From the IMG/VR virus record IMGVR_UViG_2579779105_000001: a stretch of 64,000 bases of DNA; one strand, 5' to 3'. The position numbers and the translations under genes were made by a program. This DNA comes from a virus. Its lineage: Duplodnaviria; Heunggongvirae; Uroviricota; Caudoviricetes. The notes beneath the pieces are model-generated. The model made no database searches and was not told the origin of the DNA. It saw nothing but the letters and a program-made list of their open reading frames with translations. Below, piece by piece: positions 2,952 through 56,600 of this stretch (within the stretch, counting starts at the first letter, position 1; every line of letters begins with the position of its first letter).

Positions 2952-4869
2952 CAATCCTTTACGAATTAATATTCAGTCTACTTTTGCTGATACGATCCCC
3001 GGCTATATGCCAGGTCGCTGGTCTTCAGAAGAATTAAGCGAAGATGACCTGATTTTTGAGGCGGCGACCTTAGAAGATATTGAGCTTGCCTATATGGGCA
3101 ATGAAATTCTGGTTGTGTCTGACGAAGCTATGTTTGAGTCCATAACTACAACCAGAATTCGGTTAGCTCAAACAATGCGAGCTTTCGTCCGTGCGCTGAA
3201 TCGTGGCCTGAATGGTACGAATATTATGGCAGGGACTGATGAAGCCGGGACCGATGAAAATGGACGTAATTGTATTGGTGGTGCGATTATCGGTCGTGTA
3301 CGTCGGGTAGCTAATATCCCTGTTTTGACCGCGCAGATACCGCTTACTGACGGGCAGAGTACAAGCATAATTTTCCACTCTCCAACAGCTGACGGGGCAA
3401 AAATAAAGAGTAACGACGAGCTTGTTGCATTTCAGTTTTTACTTAATAAGCGTAACGTAACTCACGTTGTCGCCCCGATTGGCGGGAGAGATGTTTCTTT
3501 AAGCCAGGTATGCCAGGCGCTATCTAATTTGATTGAGCGTAACAGCGAAAAATTTAAGAAAGCAAAAGAGCGCCAGGACAAAATGAAGGCAGATATTGAG
3601 AGTTATCTCAATGAAGCAGATAAACTGGCAGAAGAACGGTCAATAACAATTGATCAGGTGGACGTTGCGCAACGTGGGCTGACTGAAAAGCGTGCTGCTC
3701 TTACGGAGATGCAAAAAAAACTTGATGCCCAGAAAGCCATCAACGAGGAATTACAAGAAAAACGCGATAAATTGTTGTCTGCTAAAGGTGAAAAAACGAA
3801 GGAGCGAGCGTTTAGTGACCAGCTGCGACATGTAAAACATAATCTTGCCATTGACGGAAAAACAGTGCTGGATAATGGCGCTGAAGTTAATTATGTCACG
3901 TCCGGCAGTGACAATTTCGTTACGATAGTAGCACCTGAAGGTAAATTCAGTATTGATGCCAGTGCTGTCAAAGGAGGCAGTTTGGCAGATGCTGCAACCA
4001 AATTACTTAAAGCCTACCGAGAGCATAACGCAGATAAATATAAAGTTGATGTGTTACCAGGCCAGCAGGAAGACTCCGAACCACCACAGACAGCCCCCGA
4101 GACGAACCCAGTATCACAACCAGAGAGCCAAGATGTAGGTAAATACCACTATGCACTTCAATCTCGCCCGGCTGGTGTTGGTGCTGTGCCGGATGGGAAT
4201 AAAGCCGTGCTTGATCGTCCTGACCAGGCTGATCAGTATTACGGATATGCTCGTCACGGTATCATTACGTATGACCGTAAACTGACAGATGAAGAAGTCA
4301 GCCAGTACGAGTTGCTCTATCTTCCTGATGAAGATGAGCTGAAAGATTTTGCAGGCCAATTGGTTGTGTCCAGCATGTCTAAACATATTGATGGCTATGT
4401 GGACCTGTTTGGCAGTGACCTGAAAACATTCAAGGCGCAAGTGAAAATTCTTTTCCGCAAAGCGTTTCCAAACGTGGCGTATCCACTTGGTGATGGGGAG
4501 AACCTTTTCATTATGGACGTGTATAACGCCCTTCAAAATTATTCAAGCGAAGTAAAAACAGAGCATGTGGTTGAGCCAGAATCACAACCACAACCAGCAC
4601 CAGAACAGGAGCCGGAGCCAGAAGAAGCGGGTGAATCAGCAAGTGAAGCTGATCAGGAGGCAGATAAAGCGCTGGAGTACCTGAAATCCGTGCCGGAGCA
4701 GTTTACATCCCGCGATCTGACGGTCATCAGTACTGAACTTGATCATGTACAGGAAGCAGCAAATGCTCTAATCAGTGCAGGTCGATACGACGAGAACGAA
4801 GCCACTGTGGGTGCAGCAGTTGACTACCTGATCAACATTCTGGCTGAAATTCAGCAGGGAGGTGCTTAA
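2944..4869 (+). CDS. DarA-like virion antirestriction/head-morphogenesis protein
   Basis: 641 aa from ATG 2944 (P1 DarA is about 639 aa, recalled); overlaps upstream stop; acidic C-terminal segments; call is positional, no sequence-level confirmation. Confidence 0.4.
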   Translation: MINNPLRINIQSTFADTIPGYMPGRWSSEELSEDDLIFEAATLEDIELAYMGNEILVVSDEAMFESITTTRIRLAQTMRAFVRALNRGLNGTNIMAGTDEAGTDENGRNCIGGAIIGRVRRVANIPVLTAQIPLTDGQSTSIIFHSPTADGAKIKSNDELVAFQFLLNKRNVTHVVAPIGGRDVSLSQVCQALSNLIERNSEKFKKAKERQDKMKADIESYLNEADKLAEERSITIDQVDVAQRGLTEKRAALTEMQKKLDAQKAINEELQEKRDKLLSAKGEKTKERAFSDQLRHVKHNLAIDGKTVLDNGAEVNYVTSGSDNFVTIVAPEGKFSIDASAVKGGSLADAATKLLKAYREHNADKYKVDVLPGQQEDSEPPQTAPETNPVSQPESQDVGKYHYALQSRPAGVGAVPDGNKAVLDRPDQADQYYGYARHGIITYDRKLTDEEVSQYELLYLPDEDELKDFAGQLVVSSMSKHIDGYVDLFGSDLKTFKAQVKILFRKAFPNVAYPLGDGENLFIMDVYNALQNYSSEVKTEHVVEPESQPQPAPEQEPEPEEAGESASEADQEADKALEYLKSVPEQFTSRDLTVISTELDHVQEAANALISAGRYDENEATVGAAVDYLINILAEIQQGGA

Positions 4870-5237
4870 TGACCATCTCTGTTTTAGACCGCCTGAAATT
4901 AGGTAAAGAGCTATCAGATCTAATGCAGGCGCAGAAAACTGCGCCAGTATTGCAACGCGTCACCATTGGTAAGCAGATTGTTGATGTGATGCTGAAATTG
5001 GGCCTGGGGACTGCCGCGCAACCGGCAGCGGAACCGCAACAACAGACTGATCCTGTTGTAGATGAAGTCCCTAAGATAGTGACTGACTTCCTGGGCGGTG
5101 TGTTCACAAAGTCCACACAAATGGAATTTATTGATGCGCTGCGTGGGATCTCAAACTATGTTGGCGAGTTCCTTACGTTGGAGCAGGCTAAAGTACAGAC
5201 CATAAGCTGGGTGAAAGCCAACGGTTATGCCGGGTAA
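4869..5237 (+). CDS. small protein in DdrA position
   Basis: 122 aa; ATG overlaps DarA-like stop (TAATG). Confidence 0.3.
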   Translation: MTISVLDRLKLGKELSDLMQAQKTAPVLQRVTIGKQIVDVMLKLGLGTAAQPAAEPQQQTDPVVDEVPKIVTDFLGGVFTKSTQMEFIDALRGISNYVGEFLTLEQAKVQTISWVKANGYAG

Positions 5238-10639: not shown

Positions 10640-10693
10640 CCTGTGTGCCTACAAAACATCCCAATGATCGGCAAATGCTCGCTCGATGATTTG

Positions 10694-10724
10694 TATTAGA
10701 AAATTAATTTGCTGTTTCTAAATC
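10694..10724. promoter_or_regulatory. pair of operator-like motifs (TATTAGAAAAT / TGTTTCTAAATC)
   Basis: Variants of the recurrent motif at the head of the immI-like region. Confidence 0.35.
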
Positions 10725-10929
10725 GGAATGTATGATCTGCATCATCGACTGAAGTCATCCATTGCTGAAATTTTTAGTTGATCTTCCATGTTTTCAGGCT
10801 TATATTCATGCCGTCGTAGCAAATTCTGCGACCAGGTTTGACAGCCTGAATGTTAGTGCGGACAACCGCAGATTTCCGATATTGCGGTATTTTTGTGTCC
10901 GTAAACCGCGTTACGCCCGAATTATGGTG

Positions 10930-28237: not shown

Positions 28238-29266
28238 ATGGGAGAATTAATTATCTCTGGCAGTTCCGGTGGTTTTCTGCGCAACATTGGCAAAGAGTAC
28301 CAGGAAGCCGCAGAAAACTTTATGCGGTTCATGAATGACCAGGGGGCTTATGCGCCGAATACTCTGCGCGACCTCCGGTTGGTGTTTCATTCCTGGGCGC
28401 GCTGGTGTCACGCTCGCCAGCTCGCCTGGTTCCCGATCTCACCAGAAATGGCCCGCGAGTATTTTCTTCAGCTGCATGATGCCGATCTGGCTTCGACCAC
28501 CATTGATAAGCACTACGCCATGCTGAACATGCTGCTTTCGCATTGTGGCCTTCCGCCACTTTCGGATGATAAAAGTGTTTCTCTGGCTATGCGGCGCATC
28601 CGGCGCGAAGCGGCAACTGAAAAAGGCGAACGAACAGGCCAGGCTATACCGCTGCGGTGGGACGATCTGAAACTGCTCGACGTCCTGTTGTCCAGGTCAG
28701 AACGGCTGGTGGACCTGCGCAACCGGGCTTTTCTCTTTGTTGCATACAATACGCTGATGCGTATGTCGGAAATCTCGCGTATTCGTGTAGGAGATCTGGA
28801 CCAAACAGGTGACACTGTCACGCTACATATTTCACACACGAAGACAATAACGACCGCCGCCGGGCTTGATAAGGTGCTTTCCCGTCGCACTACCGCTGTG
28901 CTGAATGACTGGCTGGATGTTTCCGGGCTTCGCGAACATCGTGACGCAGTGCTGTTCCCGCCGATACACCGTAGCAATAAGGCCAGGATCACGACAACGC
29001 CCCTTACTGCACCTGCAATGGAGAAAATATTCAGCGACGCCTGGGTGTTGCTGAATAAAAGAGATGCTACGCCAAACAAAGGGAGATACCGGACGTGGAC
29101 CGGGCATAGTGCACGCGTCGGGGCCGCTATTGATATGGCTGAAAAGCAGGTGTCTATGGTGGAGATCATGCAGGAAGGAACCTGGAAGAAACCGGAAACA
29201 CTTATGCGGTATCTGCGCCGTGGCGGTGTGTCTGTGGGGGCTAATAGCCGCCTGATGGATTCGTAA
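28238..29266 (+). CDS. Cre/Dre-family tyrosine recombinase
   Basis: 342 aa; aligns along its length with P1 Cre as recalled (WFP, LLRIAEIARIRV-like RMSEISRIRVGD, GHSARVGAA); lox-like site upstream. Confidence 0.85.
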   Translation: MGELIISGSSGGFLRNIGKEYQEAAENFMRFMNDQGAYAPNTLRDLRLVFHSWARWCHARQLAWFPISPEMAREYFLQLHDADLASTTIDKHYAMLNMLLSHCGLPPLSDDKSVSLAMRRIRREAATEKGERTGQAIPLRWDDLKLLDVLLSRSERLVDLRNRAFLFVAYNTLMRMSEISRIRVGDLDQTGDTVTLHISHTKTITTAAGLDKVLSRRTTAVLNDWLDVSGLREHRDAVLFPPIHRSNKARITTTPLTAPAMEKIFSDAWVLLNKRDATPNKGRYRTWTGHSARVGAAIDMAEKQVSMVEIMQEGTWKKPETLMRYLRRGGVSVGANSRLMDS

Positions 29267-29270
29267 ATTA

Positions 29271-29284
29271 AATTTCTAACACAT
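29271..29284 (+). promoter_or_regulatory. operator-like motif AATTTCTAACACAT
   Basis: Recurrent motif at the head of the rightward early operon. Confidence 0.45.
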
Positions 29285-29339
29285 CTTTTTAGATTAACGC
29301 CTTTGATGTAAAGTACCCTCGCCTATTTAGGAGGGTGCT

Positions 29340-29684
29340 TTGCAGAGTCAAATCACGGAATCAAGACGCTTCAAGGTGGATGGTTACACCGTAACCTTCG
29401 CTGCTGGTGTTAAGAACAGTCATGCTGTCGTTGTGTTCGGCATCATGACCGGGCTTGAGGCCGTCCCTGTGTTTACCCTCGAAAAAAACTGGCGAAATCT
29501 GGAGGAAGCAGAAAGCTACGTCCGGAAAGTAACCATCATTGCCGCCGAAAAACTCCTGGCCCACTATCAGGAAAATTATCGCACTATGGTCGAGAAGATT
29601 AATCTCGCTTTCACTCGCCCCACTACCGGCTTTATTGCACCGGATACTAATGCAGGTCGCTATCCTGCAAGGGGGCGTCGGTGA
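29340..29684 (+). CDS. hypothetical protein
   Basis: 114 aa; TTG start 5 nt after a GGAGG SD. Confidence 0.4.
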   Translation: MQSQITESRRFKVDGYTVTFAAGVKNSHAVVVFGIMTGLEAVPVFTLEKNWRNLEEAESYVRKVTIIAAEKLLAHYQENYRTMVEKINLAFTRPTTGFIAPDTNAGRYPARGRR

Positions 29685-30157
29685 AAACTTATTACACATC
29701 TCTGAATTGTTACCCGTCTTCCTATCCAGAATTATCCGGGAAGCTGTTAGCTCTATTAGCTAAAGCACCTACGGAATGGTTTAAGCCAGTCGTTATCAAT
29801 CCACACTTCCTGGATTACGGATCTGTTCGCACTCGTAACGAACTCAAAAACCTACTGGCGCATGGATTCATTCGACACCGTGCCGCGAAAGGCTATCAGT
29901 TAGCGATTGCGCCAGAAGAGGCTGTGCGGCTATTCGCATATCGTGACAGCCAGACAAAAGCTCGGGTAATAGCTCAAATACTTCATAACGGCAGCACCTA
30001 TGCCCGCCAGTTTGGCGGCGACACGTCGCAGTTCTTGCGGGCGGTGCGATCGCTGGAGGAGCAAGGAGTTATTGAAAGTTCCTGTCTTCCTGTTCCTACC
30101 GTTCCACATATCAAACGTCGGGTTTACACCTTCACGCAGAGAGCTAAAAAACAATGA
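29681..30157 (+). CDS. hypothetical protein
   Basis: 158 aa; GTG start overlapping upstream stop. Confidence 0.4.
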   Translation: MKTYYTSLNCYPSSYPELSGKLLALLAKAPTEWFKPVVINPHFLDYGSVRTRNELKNLLAHGFIRHRAAKGYQLAIAPEEAVRLFAYRDSQTKARVIAQILHNGSTYARQFGGDTSQFLRAVRSLEEQGVIESSCLPVPTVPHIKRRVYTFTQRAKKQ

Positions 30158-30648
30158 TTTACGTAAAAGTGAAACGCCTACATCCGGCAGCAAAACTTCC
30201 AGCTTATGCCACCTCCGGATCGGCGGCGATGGATTTTGAGGCTGTTGAAATAAAACCATGCGTCGATAGCAATGGTGCAATTTCCTCAAGCTGGTGGGTG
30301 TATACCGGACTGGCTATGGAGATCCCGCCCGGCTGGTGTCTGAAACTCTATCCGCGATCCGGATTGGGCTGCAAAAAACATACTCGCCTGGCTAACTGCG
30401 TAGGAATTATCGACTCCGATTATCGCGGCGAAATCATGGCAAAACTGATTACTGATCCCGGCGGGGAAGGCGTTTGTCTCAAGCCTGGAATGGCTGTCAT
30501 GCAAGGAATTTTTGAACGTGTTGAACAAGTCTCACTAGTCGAGGTTGAGGAACTCAACGAAACGGAACGTGGTGCTGGTGGCTTTGGTAGCACATCGGAA
30601 GGCCACTTTGAAATTAAGCGTTCACCGCTTCAGTACGAAAAGTTATAA
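30154..30648 (+). CDS. dut: dUTPase
   Basis: 164 aa; dUTPase motif III GIIDSDYRGE and flanking conserved blocks. Confidence 0.85.
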   Translation: MIYVKVKRLHPAAKLPAYATSGSAAMDFEAVEIKPCVDSNGAISSSWWVYTGLAMEIPPGWCLKLYPRSGLGCKKHTRLANCVGIIDSDYRGEIMAKLITDPGGEGVCLKPGMAVMQGIFERVEQVSLVEVEELNETERGAGGFGSTSEGHFEIKRSPLQYEKL

Positions 30649-30662
30649 GCAGAGAAAAGACT

Positions 30663-31364
30663 ATGAATAACATGGCAACGAAAGAGCTTTTTAAGTTCCT
30701 TCCCAAATACAAAGCTCACAAAAACGTTAGTGCATCGAAAATCAAAAATGTTGTTATTTTCGGAGTAACTGATGCCCCACTTTGGGGCAGCATCGAACTC
30801 GTTGAACCAAAAGGGGCAACAGTTTGTGTTGACGCAATGTTTTTACAAAAACACCGACCAAAAACTGGCGGGTATCTGATCGTTTATGAAAACGGTTATC
30901 TGTTCTATGCCCCGGAGAAACCATTTGAGGAACGCTATGGCCTGGTTAACGACGTCTCCAAAAATGGAACCACGGTCATCATTACGGATGACAACGGCGA
31001 GATGATTAATCTTACCGGGAGCGTAACTATTTCTGCTGGTGGCATCACCACCCAGCAAGAAGAAATCGACCTTGAAGCAGCCGACTTTTCTGACGCGCTG
31101 ATGTGGCTGAAGGATGGCAAGAAAGTTGCCCGGCGCGGGTGGAACGGCGAAAACCAATTCTGCTGGCTGGTTCCAGACAAACACGGCGCTTCAAGACTAA
31201 CCCCTATAAAACATGCCATCAATGGAGAGCTTGAAATCAATTTCGACTCTCCTCTTGCTCCTTATGGTACGCATTTCGCTTTGAAAAATGCACAAGGTGT
31301 AGTTGTTCCGTGGGTGCCTTCTGTAGGCGACTTACTGGCATGTGACTGGTTTGTAGTGGAGTGA
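30663..31364 (+). CDS. two-domain protein with C-terminal DUF2829 (Tad2-like) domain
   Basis: C-terminal 95 aa ALMWLKDGKKVARRGWNGENQFCWLV ... DLLACDWFVVE matches DUF2829; N-terminal 130 aa unassigned. Confidence 0.55.
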   Translation: MNNMATKELFKFLPKYKAHKNVSASKIKNVVIFGVTDAPLWGSIELVEPKGATVCVDAMFLQKHRPKTGGYLIVYENGYLFYAPEKPFEERYGLVNDVSKNGTTVIITDDNGEMINLTGSVTISAGGITTQQEEIDLEAADFSDALMWLKDGKKVARRGWNGENQFCWLVPDKHGASRLTPIKHAINGELEINFDSPLAPYGTHFALKNAQGVVVPWVPSVGDLLACDWFVVE

Positions 31365-31370
31365 TTTAAC

Positions 31371-32171
31371 GTGGAAAATACTAAAGCAATTCAATACCGC
31401 TTGCGTAATGGCCTGCTGGTGGCTGTTAACGCCGACATGTCACTGCCGTTTGACACGATTGAACGTACTATCATGACGTATCTCGGCTTTAATGAAGAGC
31501 TGAATGAAGAGCATGGCGTAGCTATATGGAGTGATGCAGGAAGCGGCGTTCATCGTTACATCACCGCCAGGGGCAAAGACTACTCTCTGGAAGAACTGTT
31601 TACCCTTGCACAGTCTTTCGAATGTGTAGCATTAGACATGTTTAATGATCCTGCTATAGCGCAACGACTTATACGCGAGCTTGGGCTATCCGTTACACCA
31701 ATTATCTTTAAGAATGGCAGCCTGACTGGCACATGGCGCGTAGAACGCATCTCAAACTACCTTCCATATAACCGACAGTTAAATGGAGTAATCTCCGGCG
31801 TTAATCAGCCCGTAGCGTGTGAAAATGTAAACCTGGTTGCCGCTGTTTTGGCAACCGCATGTCGTGTTATCGGTTTGGCTAAACAGGCTTTTATTCATTT
31901 CCCAAATGGTGCAGAAGGTAGCGCAGAGATTATCGCGTGTGATTTCGAATTTACCTGGATGCTACGCGAATATCTGGACCAAACAGTGTTCCGCGCCGAA
32001 GAACTGGATATGTATATCACGTCAACGATTCCTGATGATGTACGTGCTGAAGCAATCGCCACAGCAAGGGCCAAATGCCGTGCGGCGATTGCAGAGCAGG
32101 CCAAAGAAGAACCGTCCGATGAAGCCGTGGCTGATGTTGAAGCAGAGGTAGCGGAGGATGCTGACGCCTAA
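31371..32171 (+). CDS. hypothetical protein (acidic C-terminus)
   Basis: 266 aa; GTG start; last gene of the rightward operon. Confidence 0.4.
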   Translation: MENTKAIQYRLRNGLLVAVNADMSLPFDTIERTIMTYLGFNEELNEEHGVAIWSDAGSGVHRYITARGKDYSLEELFTLAQSFECVALDMFNDPAIAQRLIRELGLSVTPIIFKNGSLTGTWRVERISNYLPYNRQLNGVISGVNQPVACENVNLVAAVLATACRVIGLAKQAFIHFPNGAEGSAEIIACDFEFTWMLREYLDQTVFRAEELDMYITSTIPDDVRAEAIATARAKCRAAIAEQAKEEPSDEAVADVEAEVAEDADA

Positions 32172-32254
32172 AAACATCACCGAATTAGCTGGCTGACAGC
32201 AGAAAAAATCATTGAGTGATAGTAGGAAGCCCGCCTGGTTGAGCGGGCTTCTTT

Positions 32255-32635
32255 TCAAATATTGGGACCAAATAATTCACGTAGTTTTTCCGCTACTGAA
32301 GATACGGGGATTTCACCAGTTGCGGCCCCCACCGCTAGTTCCACCAGCACGGGAGAATCATATACCTGTATGCCGTTACGGCGTAGAAATAGCAGCGCAC
32401 TGTTTAGCGCGGTACGCTTATTGGCATCATTGAATATATGCCCTCTCGCCGTAGCTACCAGGTAGGTGGCGGAGACTTCGAAAAGGTCGGTGATCTCTTC
32501 GTAGGCAACTCTGGCCTGAACTCTACCGATAATGGCCTCTGCCCTACCCGGATCTGACATTCCCGGCAGGCCGCCGTAGCGGCTTATATTCGCATCATGA
32601 AGCGCAATAAGTTCTTCCGGTGATATATGCCTCAT
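32255..32635 (-). CDS. doc: Doc toxin (Fic-fold kinase)
   Basis: 126 aa; near-identical over most of its length to P1 Doc as recalled. Confidence 0.9.
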
Positions 32636-32856: not shown

Positions 32857-32928
32857 AAACACCTCATGTACTCGTTATGTGTACACAACTATAAACTTCA
32901 CAGGTATAAAGCACCAGCACTTTGCAGC

Positions 32929-45021: not shown

Positions 45022-45189
45022 AAGTTGATGAGAGCAAAGAGTTCAATGCCCAGCTCAAACAACGCCAGGACAGTGAAAAACAGGACATATAGCAACCCAA
45101 TTTCTGTATCGGATTGCTGGTGGATTGCACTAATTGCGACAAGCATCATGACCTCCTGATATAGCGTCTGAAAAAAGTATCTTCATTTT

Positions 45190-45222
45190 GTGTTAGAAAA
45201 TCAATTTTGATTTTCTAACATG
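45190..45222. promoter_or_regulatory. palindromic double operator TGTTAGAAAATCAA-TT-TTGATTTTCTAACA
   Basis: Perfect 14-bp inverted repeat made of the recurrent motif, between the divergent ref-like gene and the leftward accessory cluster. Confidence 0.6.
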
Positions 45223-45265
45223 TTTGATCAACCATAGCGGCTATGTAGACAAACCGGGTATTTCT

Positions 45266-45841
45266 ATGAAGCAAAGCTATTGGGAGAAACAGACACAAAA
45301 AGCCCTGCAAAAACTGGCTGATCCGAAATGGCGGGAGGAACAAAGGGCAAAGCGTCTTCAGCAAGCTCAACGCCAGCAGCAGCGTGCGCGAGAAAAAGCC
45401 GCATCGCCTGAATATCGGCAAAAGAAAATTGAAAAAGCGAAGCAATATGAACAGCGAAGAAAAGAGAAGGCCGCTTCTGCTCCTGTCAAAAAAACTCGCG
45501 CGTCACGCGGCCTGAAAGGCAGAACACTCACAGCAGATGAGCGCCGGATACAAACTGCCATCGGTGCTCTCCCCTGCATTGCCTGCCATATGCACGGACA
45601 GCATAGCCCTGTGGTATCCCTGCACCACATCTTCGGAAGAACAGCAGAGAACGCGCATAAATACGTCCTCCCTTTGTGTAAATGGCACCATCAACACGCA
45701 GCGCCAGCAGAGATCCGCGAGCAATACCCCTGGTTGGTTCCTGTTCATGCTGATGGAAAAATAGGCGGTAAAGCAGATTTCAGGCGGCACAATGCTGATG
45801 AAATGACGTTGTATCAGATGGCGATTGAATTGACGAATTAG
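45266..45841 (+). CDS. ref: Ref-like RecA-dependent HNH nuclease
   Basis: Basic low-complexity N-terminus then a Cys/His HNH-like core (CIACHMHGQH ... LCKWHH); operator upstream as for P1 ref (recalled); track start at 45224 is TTG. Confidence 0.55.
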   Translation: MKQSYWEKQTQKALQKLADPKWREEQRAKRLQQAQRQQQRAREKAASPEYRQKKIEKAKQYEQRRKEKAASAPVKKTRASRGLKGRTLTADERRIQTAIGALPCIACHMHGQHSPVVSLHHIFGRTAENAHKYVLPLCKWHHQHAAPAEIREQYPWLVPVHADGKIGGKADFRRHNADEMTLYQMAIELTN

Positions 45842-55635: not shown

Positions 55636-55650
55636 AAAATGCACCCATTT

Positions 55651-55682
55651 GTGTTAGATAATTAACGCGTATTTTCTAACAT
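55651..55682. promoter_or_regulatory. pair of operator-like motifs (GTGTTAGATAA ... GTATTTTCTAACATAAA)
   Basis: Inverted pair of the recurrent motif directly upstream of hrdC. Confidence 0.5.
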
Positions 55683-55694
55683 AAATGGTGAGAA

Positions 55695-56600
55695 ATGAGA
55701 TCAGTCGCTTTCAAAAATATCTTCATCTATCGTCTTTCACGCGAAGTTAACTGGGATACCGCAGAAGTAAATGCAGCCCTTAGCAAGTTTGTGTTTACCC
55801 CATGCGGTTCTCAGGATATGGCTAAAGCTGGTTGGACCCCAATTCTTGGCGACAACCTCACCCATGAATACCAGGGTTTTCTTCTGATGCAGCATAAACG
55901 AGAGGAAAAAATCCTGCCTTCTCAAGTACTCAAAGAAGAGTTACAGAAAAAAATCCTGAAACTTGAAGAAGAGCAAGACAGAAAGCTGAAGAAGACCGAA
56001 AAAGATTCGCTGAAGGATGAAGTGCTTCACTCTCTTCTTCCTCGCGCTTTCACGAGAAAATCAGTCGCTAAAATCCTGATAGACCGAAGCAATCATCTGG
56101 TTTTTGTCGAGGCCAGCAGTGCTAAAAAAGCAGAGGATCAGCTGGCTTTGTTACGGAAATCGCTTGGCAGCTTGCCCGTTGTCCCCTTCTCTCCGAAAGA
56201 CCCATTAGAACTGACCATCACTGGCTGGATTAAAGATGGCTTCCCGAACGGTTTCCGTGCTGGTGAGGAAGCGACTTTAAAAGCATTGCTTGATGATGGC
56301 GGCGCGGTCCGCTGCAAAAAAGTGGACCTGCTATCCGACGAGATCATGAGTCATATAGAAGCTGGTAAGGTTGCAACCACAGTTGCGGTTAACTGGCAAG
56401 ACCGTGCATTTTTCAGACTGAATGACGATATGAGTATCAAGGCTTTGTCGTTCAGCGACGAATTGTACGACCAAAACGACGATATTGATCGAGAGGATGT
56501 AGCGCAACGATTTGACGCTGACTTTATCCTGTTTACTGCTGAATTATCAGCCATGTTCACTTCGCTAGTGGAGGCCGTTGGTGGTGAAGCAGAACGTTAA
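55695..56600 (+). CDS. hrdC: RdgC-like recombination-associated protein (P1 HrdC-like)
   Basis: N-terminus [10 protein letters not shown] ... [14 protein letters not shown] matches RdgC as recalled. Confidence 0.75.

Follow-up and report, generated by a model that had tools for sequence, protein, structure and literature searches.

A Tad2-family domain fused to a Dec-type OB-fold module in an early operon of a D6-type phage-plasmid: a candidate signal sponge

Tad2 (DUF2829) proteins are tetramers, and as a family they bind 3' cyclic ADP-ribose (3'cADPR), histidine-ADP-ribose (His-ADPR), N7-cyclic ADP-ribose (N7-cADPR), cyclic dinucleotides, and cyclic CMP and cyclic UMP (cCMP/cUMP). In SPO1 Tad2, residues W25 and W73 stack on glycocyclic ADP-ribose (gcADPR), sandwiching the ligand; in HgmTad2, mutation of W21/N22 and S90/D93 markedly reduces binding. 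A second type of pocket is formed largely by an insertion between strands beta2 and beta5. Fusion sponges containing Tad2 have been known since 2025, when Tad2-Acb4 (from Pasteurella phage Pm86) and Tad2-Sequestin proteins were described and tested; Sequestin itself had come to light because it is often joined to Tad2 and Acb4, in a search confined to families of Pfam (10.1101/2025.07.12.664507). Also known since 2025 is the presence of Tad2 on D6 and P1 phage-plasmids, with Tad2/AcrIIA7 reported by DefenseFinder-type screens in 93% of D6-like and 56% of P1-like elements (10.1101/2025.09.12.675607). Here we describe a 64,000-nucleotide stretch of viral DNA (IMG/VR record IMGVR_UViG_2579779105_000001, hereafter the window) in which gene 4 of a five-gene operon encodes a Tad2 domain preceded by an OB-fold module.

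Like the Tad2-Acb4 and Tad2-Sequestin fusions, gene 4 carries a Tad2 domain and another small phage module in one polypeptide. The published proteins pair Tad2 with a proven sponge, whereas gene 4 pairs it with an OB-fold that has no Pfam family. Judging by the searchable literature, the new part is what this N-terminal module is, together with its repeated association with sponges; the Tad2 part adds one more candidate member to a well-studied family. An earlier note, made from the letters of the window, had held fusion architectures of this domain to be uncharacterised. That was too broad given the 2025 fusions, and it stands for the OB-Tad2 architecture itself, of which we found no description in the searchable literature. 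A peptide search through the supplements of two 2025 sponge papers gave no Tad2 or OB match of the gene 4 lineage except one protein combining OB, Acb4 and Lockin.

The Tad2 domain of gene 4 and its operon

Residues 141-232 of gene 4 match the Pfam Tad2-like profile PF11195 at 1.3e-21 (77.4 bits against a gathering cutoff of 25), and a phmmer search of the PDB matched five solved Tad2 proteins at E values from 8e-14 to 5e-7. W160 and W217 align with W25 and W73 of SPO1 Tad2, and W160/N161 and S220/D223 align with W21/N22 and S90/D93 of HgmTad2; the pocket columns W160, N161, W217, S220 and D223 are invariant across 50 relatives. Together with the predicted fold, these results bear out the DUF2829/Tad2 pattern that the earlier note had read in the C-terminus. 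The Pfam search which that note proposed also places its second DUF2829 candidate, the product of 22437..23012, above the same cutoff (38.5 bits). On every test available in silico the C-terminal domain of gene 4 behaves as a Tad2-family member, and on its sequence we assign it to that family.

The closest solved relative is ModTad2 (also MoTad2; PDB 9EIB and 8V3E) from a Myroides odoratus prophage, whose ligands are His-ADPR in one pocket and cUMP/cCMP in another, rather than gcADPR. ModTad2 is a stand-alone protein of 89 aa; gene 4 exceeds it by 137 residues at the N-terminus and by 9 aa in the beta2-beta5 insertion. Structure predictions were made for monomers. By analogy with the solved proteins, the C-terminal 96 aa would most likely form a homotetramer, and second messengers of host immunity would be bound in its interfacial pockets. 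Candidate ligands are TIR-derived ADP-ribose derivatives, e.g. His-ADPR or 3'cADPR; cyclic mono- or dinucleotides may possibly be bound too, through the variable beta2-beta5 insertion. Sequestration of the signal would block activation of Thoeris-type effectors, and perhaps of Pycsar or CBASS effectors. There is a precedent for an N-terminal fusion to Tad2 being functional, in the tested Acb4-Tad2 protein (10.1101/2025.07.12.664507).

The rightward operon that the earlier note had placed at 29271-32171 was found as five + strand open reading frames (ORFs) spanning 29340-32171, with 4-nt overlaps or gaps of 6-14 nt between them. AGGAGG at 29329-29334 lies 5 nt before the TTG start of ORF1. The operator motif with which the operon was said to begin is present, one base to the left of the 29271-29284 given for it (Table 1). 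It is a repeated element with a repressor gene nearby: with at most two mismatches, AAATTTCTAACACA occurs in 7 copies in the window against 0.79 expected, a number reached in 0 of 100 shuffles, and a C1 repressor homologue is encoded 1.4 kb from the operon. In D6 the corresponding gene, orf1, is annotated "prophage repressor, similar to P1 C1" and sits between pacB and the rox/dre region. Three copies of the motif share one orientation and precede + strand genes by 57-172 nt, among them the copy (at 23423) before an Lpa-like activator gene (23513). An inverted pair of motifs directly precedes a Ref-like gene (45224..45841), and another lies upstream of an exonuclease-like gene (55695..56600). 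The inverted pairs, with about 10 bp between their members, are at 45189-45221, 55650-55688 and 10692-10730, and they resemble the bipartite C1 operators of P1. In the P1 genome paper of Lobocka et al. (2004), lpa and ref are reportedly classical C1-controlled genes, and the ref operator is said to be bipartite.

The P1 record annotates a C1 operator, Ossb/Op21, in front of ssb. Compared with P1 operons controlled in this way, the window likewise has a single asymmetric operator candidate near the start of an early operon and paired ones elsewhere. The motif recurs in front of several genes, and the element carries a C1 homologue of its own. The window differs from P1 in the sequence of the operator, which here is a candidate of D6 type. 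In the best register AAATTTCTAACACA matches Ossb (ATTGCTCTAATTAATTT) at 9 of 17 positions, which rules it out as a P1 operator, and it does not match the P1 operator consensus ATTGCTCTAATAAATTT; if AAATTTCTAACACA is an operator, it would therefore be D6-specific. A standard consensus scan found no + strand promoter. A weak candidate near the operon from a relaxed scan has the operator-like motif in its spacer (Table 1). At the other end, the claim that the operon converges on doc proved correct, since the intrinsic terminator touches the doc stop codon. There are good grounds to infer that the operon is repressor-controlled and co-transcribed. In the plasmid prophage state it would probably be off, with the C1-type repressor bound to the motif at 29270-29283; after infection or induction it would be transcribed as a single unit up to the terminator.

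The gene structure, the repetition of the motif, the domain homologies, the predicted folds and the conserved pocket residues, all of them observed, make it probable that gene 4 encodes a signal sponge of Tad2 type and is expressed from an early operon under repressor control. Several points weigh on the other side. Gene 4 and its close relatives are known as sequences and models only. HgmTad2 T92 is replaced by glycine (G222) in gene 4. The beta2-beta5 insertion comes in three variants, of which gene 4 has the longest, and here (aa 174-198) it is modelled with a predicted local distance difference test score (pLDDT) below 50. Ligand specificity in Tad2 is plastic and does not follow phylogeny; the ligand of gene 4 is not readable from its sequence. 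Repressor control is argued by analogy, with the 9/17 operator match to P1, and no strong sigma-70 promoter was found, the relaxed scan giving 7-8 of 12 matches. Phage P1 has no OB-Tad2 gene, its ssb being followed directly by isaA, and gene 4 is dispensable by that comparison. D6 orf114 (locus L001, 2594-3034) has lost the OB module by a clean in-frame deletion, with the junction MNNMATKELFKFLPKYKAHK to KNGTTVIITDD... The shuffling of modules among relatives, described below, is as expected of an arms-race gene, yet it too marks gene 4 as dispensable.

The OB module and its association with sponges

The earlier note had found no recognisable fold in the N-terminal 130 aa of gene 4. This did not hold: the region is predicted to consist of a five-stranded OB barrel (aa ~10-95) and a beta-rich linker. 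A plain phmmer search of the PDB with the N-terminal region gave one match, the decoration protein Dec of phage L (E 0.0088). With a profile of 19 related N-termini the match to Dec strengthened to 9.8e-6, aligning Dec residues 13-91 with profile positions 13-94, across the whole OB domain of Dec (residues 12-89). When the profile was built from 143 sequences of the whole family, Dec was once more the sole PDB match (E 8e-4). Gene 4 and Dec share the pattern P.YK...A..IK...KPE.GGYL...G.L.Y....AFE..Y. Beyond the barrel, the linker sequence INLTGSVTISAG aligns with ITLTGAVTGSAS, the start of the trimeric stalk of Dec (PMC6449081), with about 12 residues alike in a part of the model at pLDDT 55-68. 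Dec, 134 aa long, is a trimeric protein that cements capsids and bears a beta-helix spike (PDB 6E3C; PMC6449081); unlike Dec, gene 4 has a Tad2 C-terminus and lies in an early or accessory operon. Judged by these profile matches, the N-terminal ~95 aa of gene 4 are a Dec-type OB-fold homologous to Dec. The module has no Pfam match and is not PF13876, PF21825 or PF24729. Lockin, which is described as missing from INPHARED genomes and as forming cog-like hexamers, was ruled out as its identity: the OB module occurs in SJ46 and other INPHARED phages, and a Foldseek search of the PDB returned only Dec.

We estimated the size of the OB family by running the first 100 residues of gene 4 with HMMER against 1.84 billion cluster representatives. 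Of these, 1,845 matched at E <= 1e-3, which puts the family at ~1,800 clusters at 50% identity, and most of them are stand-alone proteins of 85-180 aa. The family pattern, which is strikingly conserved, is P.YKCHK..A.KI ... KH.P..GGY.V.Y.DGY.S.SPA.AFE.GY, and no Pfam model covers it. The gene 4 allele departs from nearly invariant family residues at three places, with YENGY for YEDGY, F.A for S.S, and ERY for E.GY.

Among the best 143 of the 1,845 representatives, the Pfam partners of the OB module were Sequestin (PF21825; 5 proteins), Tad2 (4), Acb4 (PF13876; 3), the Acb2/Tad1 hairpin (PF24729; 3) and a few singletons. The IMG/VR protein with OB, Acb4 and Lockin is in Table S4, on Lockin homologues, of the fusion-sponge study (10.1101/2025.07.12.664507). 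We also examined OB neighbourhoods, by finding IMG/VR loci with a 36-aa core alignment and collecting the small ORFs within two genes of the OB gene at 47 non-redundant loci. These 142 small ORFs include Acb4 twice, Tad2, the Acb2/Tad1 hairpin and Sequestin, as raw counts without a background control. The remaining neighbours are mostly early or accessory genes (SSB, NinX, Ead/Ea22, HNH, resolvase), with one small terminase subunit among the 142. The OB module therefore recurs fused to or beside several unrelated sponge families, and its association with five of them makes it, by the published fusion logic, a candidate sponge or sponge-associated domain. Discovery by fusion would have passed over it, since only families in Pfam were considered there.

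Gene 4 might on these grounds have two functions, with an OB module that itself binds a ligand, as in the Acb4-Tad2 two-sponge fusion, so that two signals are neutralised. In favour are the size of a family that Pfam does not model; its fusion to Tad2, Acb4, Sequestin and the Acb2/Tad1 hairpin in different lineages, as well as to Acb4 and Lockin together; the sponge genes found near OB genes; and the discovery of Sequestin by this same "guilt by fusion" logic. The family-wide conserved His, Lys, Asp, Ser and five Tyr residues are moreover typical of nucleotide pockets. Against it, the neighbourhood counts have no background, polyvalent phage proteins also join functionally unrelated modules, the allele in the window is off the family consensus, D6 deleted the module in frame, and the sole solved homologue, Dec, binds capsids and not nucleotides. 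Nor does the OB module of gene 4 come from a demonstrated sponge family. We regard a second, OB-borne anti-signalling function as possible, if doubtful. It is similarly a tentative proposal that the OB family is a new anti-signalling family, of sponges or sponge assistants, and that P1/D6-type phage-plasmids carry a two-sponge protein whose modules are shuffled between alleles.

The homology to Dec could instead suggest that gene 4 is virion-associated, with the OB-fold and stalk-like linker attaching to capsids, as decoration or cargo, and displaying or delivering the Tad2 domain. Dec is after all the only solved homologue of the module, the similarity reaches into the start of the Dec stalk, and one relative (P0010) has an N-terminal tail-fibre repeat. 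However, gene 4 is in an operator-preceded operon with dut and not among morphogenetic genes, P1-type relatives carry the gene in the C1-controlled ssb operon, and the neighbours of OB genes elsewhere are the mostly early or accessory genes noted above. D6 makes virions without the OB module, and Tad2 is a tetramer whereas Dec is a trimer. We consider a virion role very improbable, and retain the Tad2-type signal sponge as the preferred reading of gene 4.

Identifying the module connects the fold of a capsid-decoration protein with small phage proteins that form a very large family. Should the module bind a signal, a new sponge family would be gained, with representatives in cultivable relatives of coliphages, and Pfam-restricted "guilt by fusion" screens would be seen to miss candidates. 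If it binds no signal, its frequent presence on sponges still needs explaining.

Variation of the cassette in D6- and P1-type elements

For 84% of its length, the segment 29200-32300 aligns at 97.7% identity with Escherichia phage D6 (NC_050154), a phage-plasmid of the P1 family. The annotated gene order in D6 is Dre recombinase, orf117, orf116, dUTPase, orf114 (DUF2829), orf113 ("similar to P1 isaA"), then doc/phd on the opposite strand. D6 orf117-orf113 form an orthologous operon, with the same gene order and an identical operator, and by this synteny the operon at 29340-32171 is an accessory early operon of a D6-type phage-plasmid (D6 orf117-orf116-dut-orf114-isaA). D6 orf114 differs from gene 4 in having insertion variant b as well as in its missing OB module. 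Two small D6 genes have no counterpart in the window: pdcA-like orf112, in the isaA-doc interval, and orf109, in the phd-humD interval (32172-32254 and 32863-32928 of the window, compared with 3850-4047 and 4762-5184 of the D6 locus L001).

In P1-type relatives such as SJ46, the OB-Tad2 gene lies between ssb and isaA. The arrangement there is ssb-[DUF2829]-isaA-hxr; gene 4 lies instead behind dut. Wherever the OB-Tad2 cassette is present it adjoins isaA, always just upstream of it, and in P1 that operon is C1-controlled. The same ~56-aa start (V/MVQTPTKARTRKQTPKLAMARAFHEKNTPRYC...) is annotated on P1 isaA (L084, 2824-3786) and on the SJ46 DUF2829 gene (L002, 3854-4699). This common leader is the region downstream of ssb; because both genes share it, their annotated starts are probably wrong, and the real starts are probably internal Met residues. 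The cassette behaviour of OB-Tad2 agrees with the unequal Tad2/AcrIIA7 frequencies reported for D6-like and P1-like elements (10.1101/2025.09.12.675607).

Within the cassette, 66 close clusters combine two linker variants with three insertion variants, and all combinations are present; one insertion variant also turns RGWNGEN into REWKGEK. A near-identical protein to gene 4 is encoded on a 91-kb E. coli contig (reported as 100%, although residue 113 visibly differs, V for E). In more distant relatives additional modules are inserted, which yields chains of OB, another module of unrecognised family, Tad2 and Sequestin (P0088, P0100), and OB, Tad2 and Sequestin occur in one chain in P0088, P0100 and P0245. 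The additional module, also without a Pfam model, has the pattern KKPVVIEAxQ...TLEGxMxAxxGDWIIxGxxGExYPCKPDIFxxTYE and lies between OB and Tad2 in P0088, P0091, P0100 and P0061, some of which end in a Sequestin domain. Since it is fused to OB and Tad2, fusion logic makes it a further anti-defence candidate. The genomic context of the four-module relative P0088 was uninformative. In P0059 (E. coli, on contigs of up to 88.6 kb), a deletion has produced an in-frame dUTPase::Tad2 fusion, its junction running from ...ERGAGG in dUTPase motif V to ...SAGGITTQQ in the linker. Its dUTPase is probably inactive, because the FGST part of motif V was removed.

Such derivatives could mean that the cassette is a decaying passenger, a moron that hitch-hikes in this element without a present function. 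It is missing from P1, deletion derivatives exist (D6 orf114, the dUTPase::Tad2 fusion and truncated clusters), and the OB allele in the window is divergent. On the other hand, dozens of clusters and hundreds of their members retain the full-length frame, with gene 4 intact in many isolates; the pocket residues are invariant; and the mosaic exchange of linker and insertion variants is the outcome expected if an active counter-defence gene were under diversifying selection. Loss of function in this element is in our view unlikely, and a functional Tad2-type sponge is favoured.

Of 5,426 complete E. coli genomes, 84 cover at least 80% of the operon, nearly always on plasmids of ~90 kb, where RefSeq labels its products as three hypothetical proteins, a DUF2829 protein and dut. 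The operon is therefore common and already catalogued DNA. Phage-plasmids of the P1/D6 group are frequent in pathogenic E. coli, Shigella and Salmonella, and disarmed host defences would help explain their spread.

Other genes of the operon and its surroundings

Table 1. Coordinates of the operon, its putative control elements and related features in the 64,000-nt window (AF2, AlphaFold2; PHROG entries with E values where available).
Feature	Position	Strand	Basis
Second, divergent DUF2829 protein, 191 aa (D6 orf6), upstream of lpa	22437..23012	+	PF11195 aa 103-190, 1.7e-9, 38.5 bits vs cutoff 25
C1-type prophage repressor gene, 345 aa	26803..27840	-	Synteny with D6 orf1; PHROG 1678
Dre/Cre-type recombinase ORF	28238..29266		PF00589
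Weak sigma-70 promoter candidate, TTAAAT-16 nt-TAGATT, operator in spacer	29268..29295	+	Relaxed scan, 7/12 matches; inferred
Operator-like motif AAATTTCTAACACA (D6-type C1 operator candidate)	29270..29283	+	7 copies in window; identical in D6
ORF1, 114 aa (D6 orf117)	29340..29684	+	PHROG 1968, 4.1e-48, function unknown
ORF2, 158 aa (D6 orf116)	29681..30157	+	PHROG 6669, 2.2e-97, function unknown
dut, trimeric-type dUTPase, 164 aa	30154..30648	+	PF00692 1.7e-14; NCBIfam equivalog NF001862, 121.5 bits vs cutoff 103
Gene 4, OB-Tad2 fusion gene, 233 aa	30663..31364	+	AF2 model, mean pLDDT 74.7; 139 homologue clusters
N-terminal OB-fold module, Dec-type, aa ~10-95	30690..30947	+	AF2 small beta-barrel, pLDDT 86-93; Dec homology
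Beta-rich linker, aa 96-137, low model confidence	30948..31073	+	pLDDT 55-68; two exchangeable variants in relatives
Tad2 (DUF2829) sponge domain (predicted), aa 138-233	31074..31361	+	PF11195 match, predicted fold, pocket residues
isaA homologue, 266 aa, variable acidic tail	31371..32171	+	D6 orf113 "similar to P1 isaA"
Intrinsic terminator hairpin GGAAGCCCGC-loop-GCGGGCUUC + U-run	32225..32256	+	Terminator scan; RNA fold -28.9 kcal/mol, z -3.4
doc	32255..32635	-	Stop codon touched by terminator hairpin

The dUTPase called canonical in the earlier note is so by its profile matches (Table 1) and by the presence of all five motifs in its translation (AAMDF, PRSG, GIIDSDYRGE, AVMQ, RGAGGFGST). 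It would act as a normal dUTPase, keeping uracil out of replicating phage DNA. ORF1 had no significant Pfam and no NCBIfam match, and ORF2 no Pfam, NCBIfam or PDB sequence match; for these two and for IsaA, Pfam, NCBIfam, the PDB and fold comparison gave nothing informative. The last gene, which the note had listed as an acidic unknown, is a homologue of P1 IsaA, and it is acidic only in a non-conserved C-terminal tail. Across 14 clusters, all of them from P1/D6-like elements, its core of ~240 aa shows strong conservation and includes Cys, His, Glu and Arg residues that do not vary (e.g. in HFPNGAEG). The IsaA model (pLDDT 82, predicted template modelling score 0.76) had no convincing structural neighbour. 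The note's label of an anti-defence island for the operon is not justified, because the anti-defence evidence is limited to gene 4; the other four genes have none, dut being ordinary.

The earlier note's second DUF2829-like C-terminus, in 22437..23012, was confirmed at aa 103-190, and by its sequence the product is a divergent DUF2829 family member. The Pfam profile alone detects it: phmmer against the PDB gave no solved Tad2 match, and BLASTP against gene 4 no match. The Trp residues are kept, and GWNG is replaced by SWPKG. Homologues were found only in D6-like elements. The gene is followed by a 130-aa ORF of unknown function at 23012-23404 (D6 orf5, PHROG 7004), whose start overlaps its stop; this pair of genes closely precedes the operator-like motif that lies before lpa.

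Names given to relatives of the two DUF2829 proteins raise the alternative that the domain serves not in signal sequestration, as an anti-CRISPR (AcrIIA7-like) protein or as an "MW1434 type I toxin". HgmTad2, a significant match to gene 4, originally entered the PDB under the name AcrIIA7, "Inhibitor of Type II CRISPR-Cas system". For P0291, a homologue of the 22437..23012 protein, NCBI uses the name "MW1434 family type I TA system toxin", which is odd beside the Tad2-like Pfam assignment. Binding of DUF2829 to Cas9, however, was never shown, whereas several DUF2829 proteins act as sponges, and the CRISPR-Cas systems known from E. coli and Salmonella belong to type I, not to type II. No NCBIfam model matched the 22437..23012 protein, and no NCBIfam toxin model matches either DUF2829 protein. 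We give these functions hardly any credence for gene 4, next to signal sequestration.

A cluster of four tRNA genes lies on the + strand at 19738-21982 of the window (Asn-GTT, Thr-TGT, Ser-TGA, Met-CAT), and its Met tRNA region is common to many P1-like and Stx phages.

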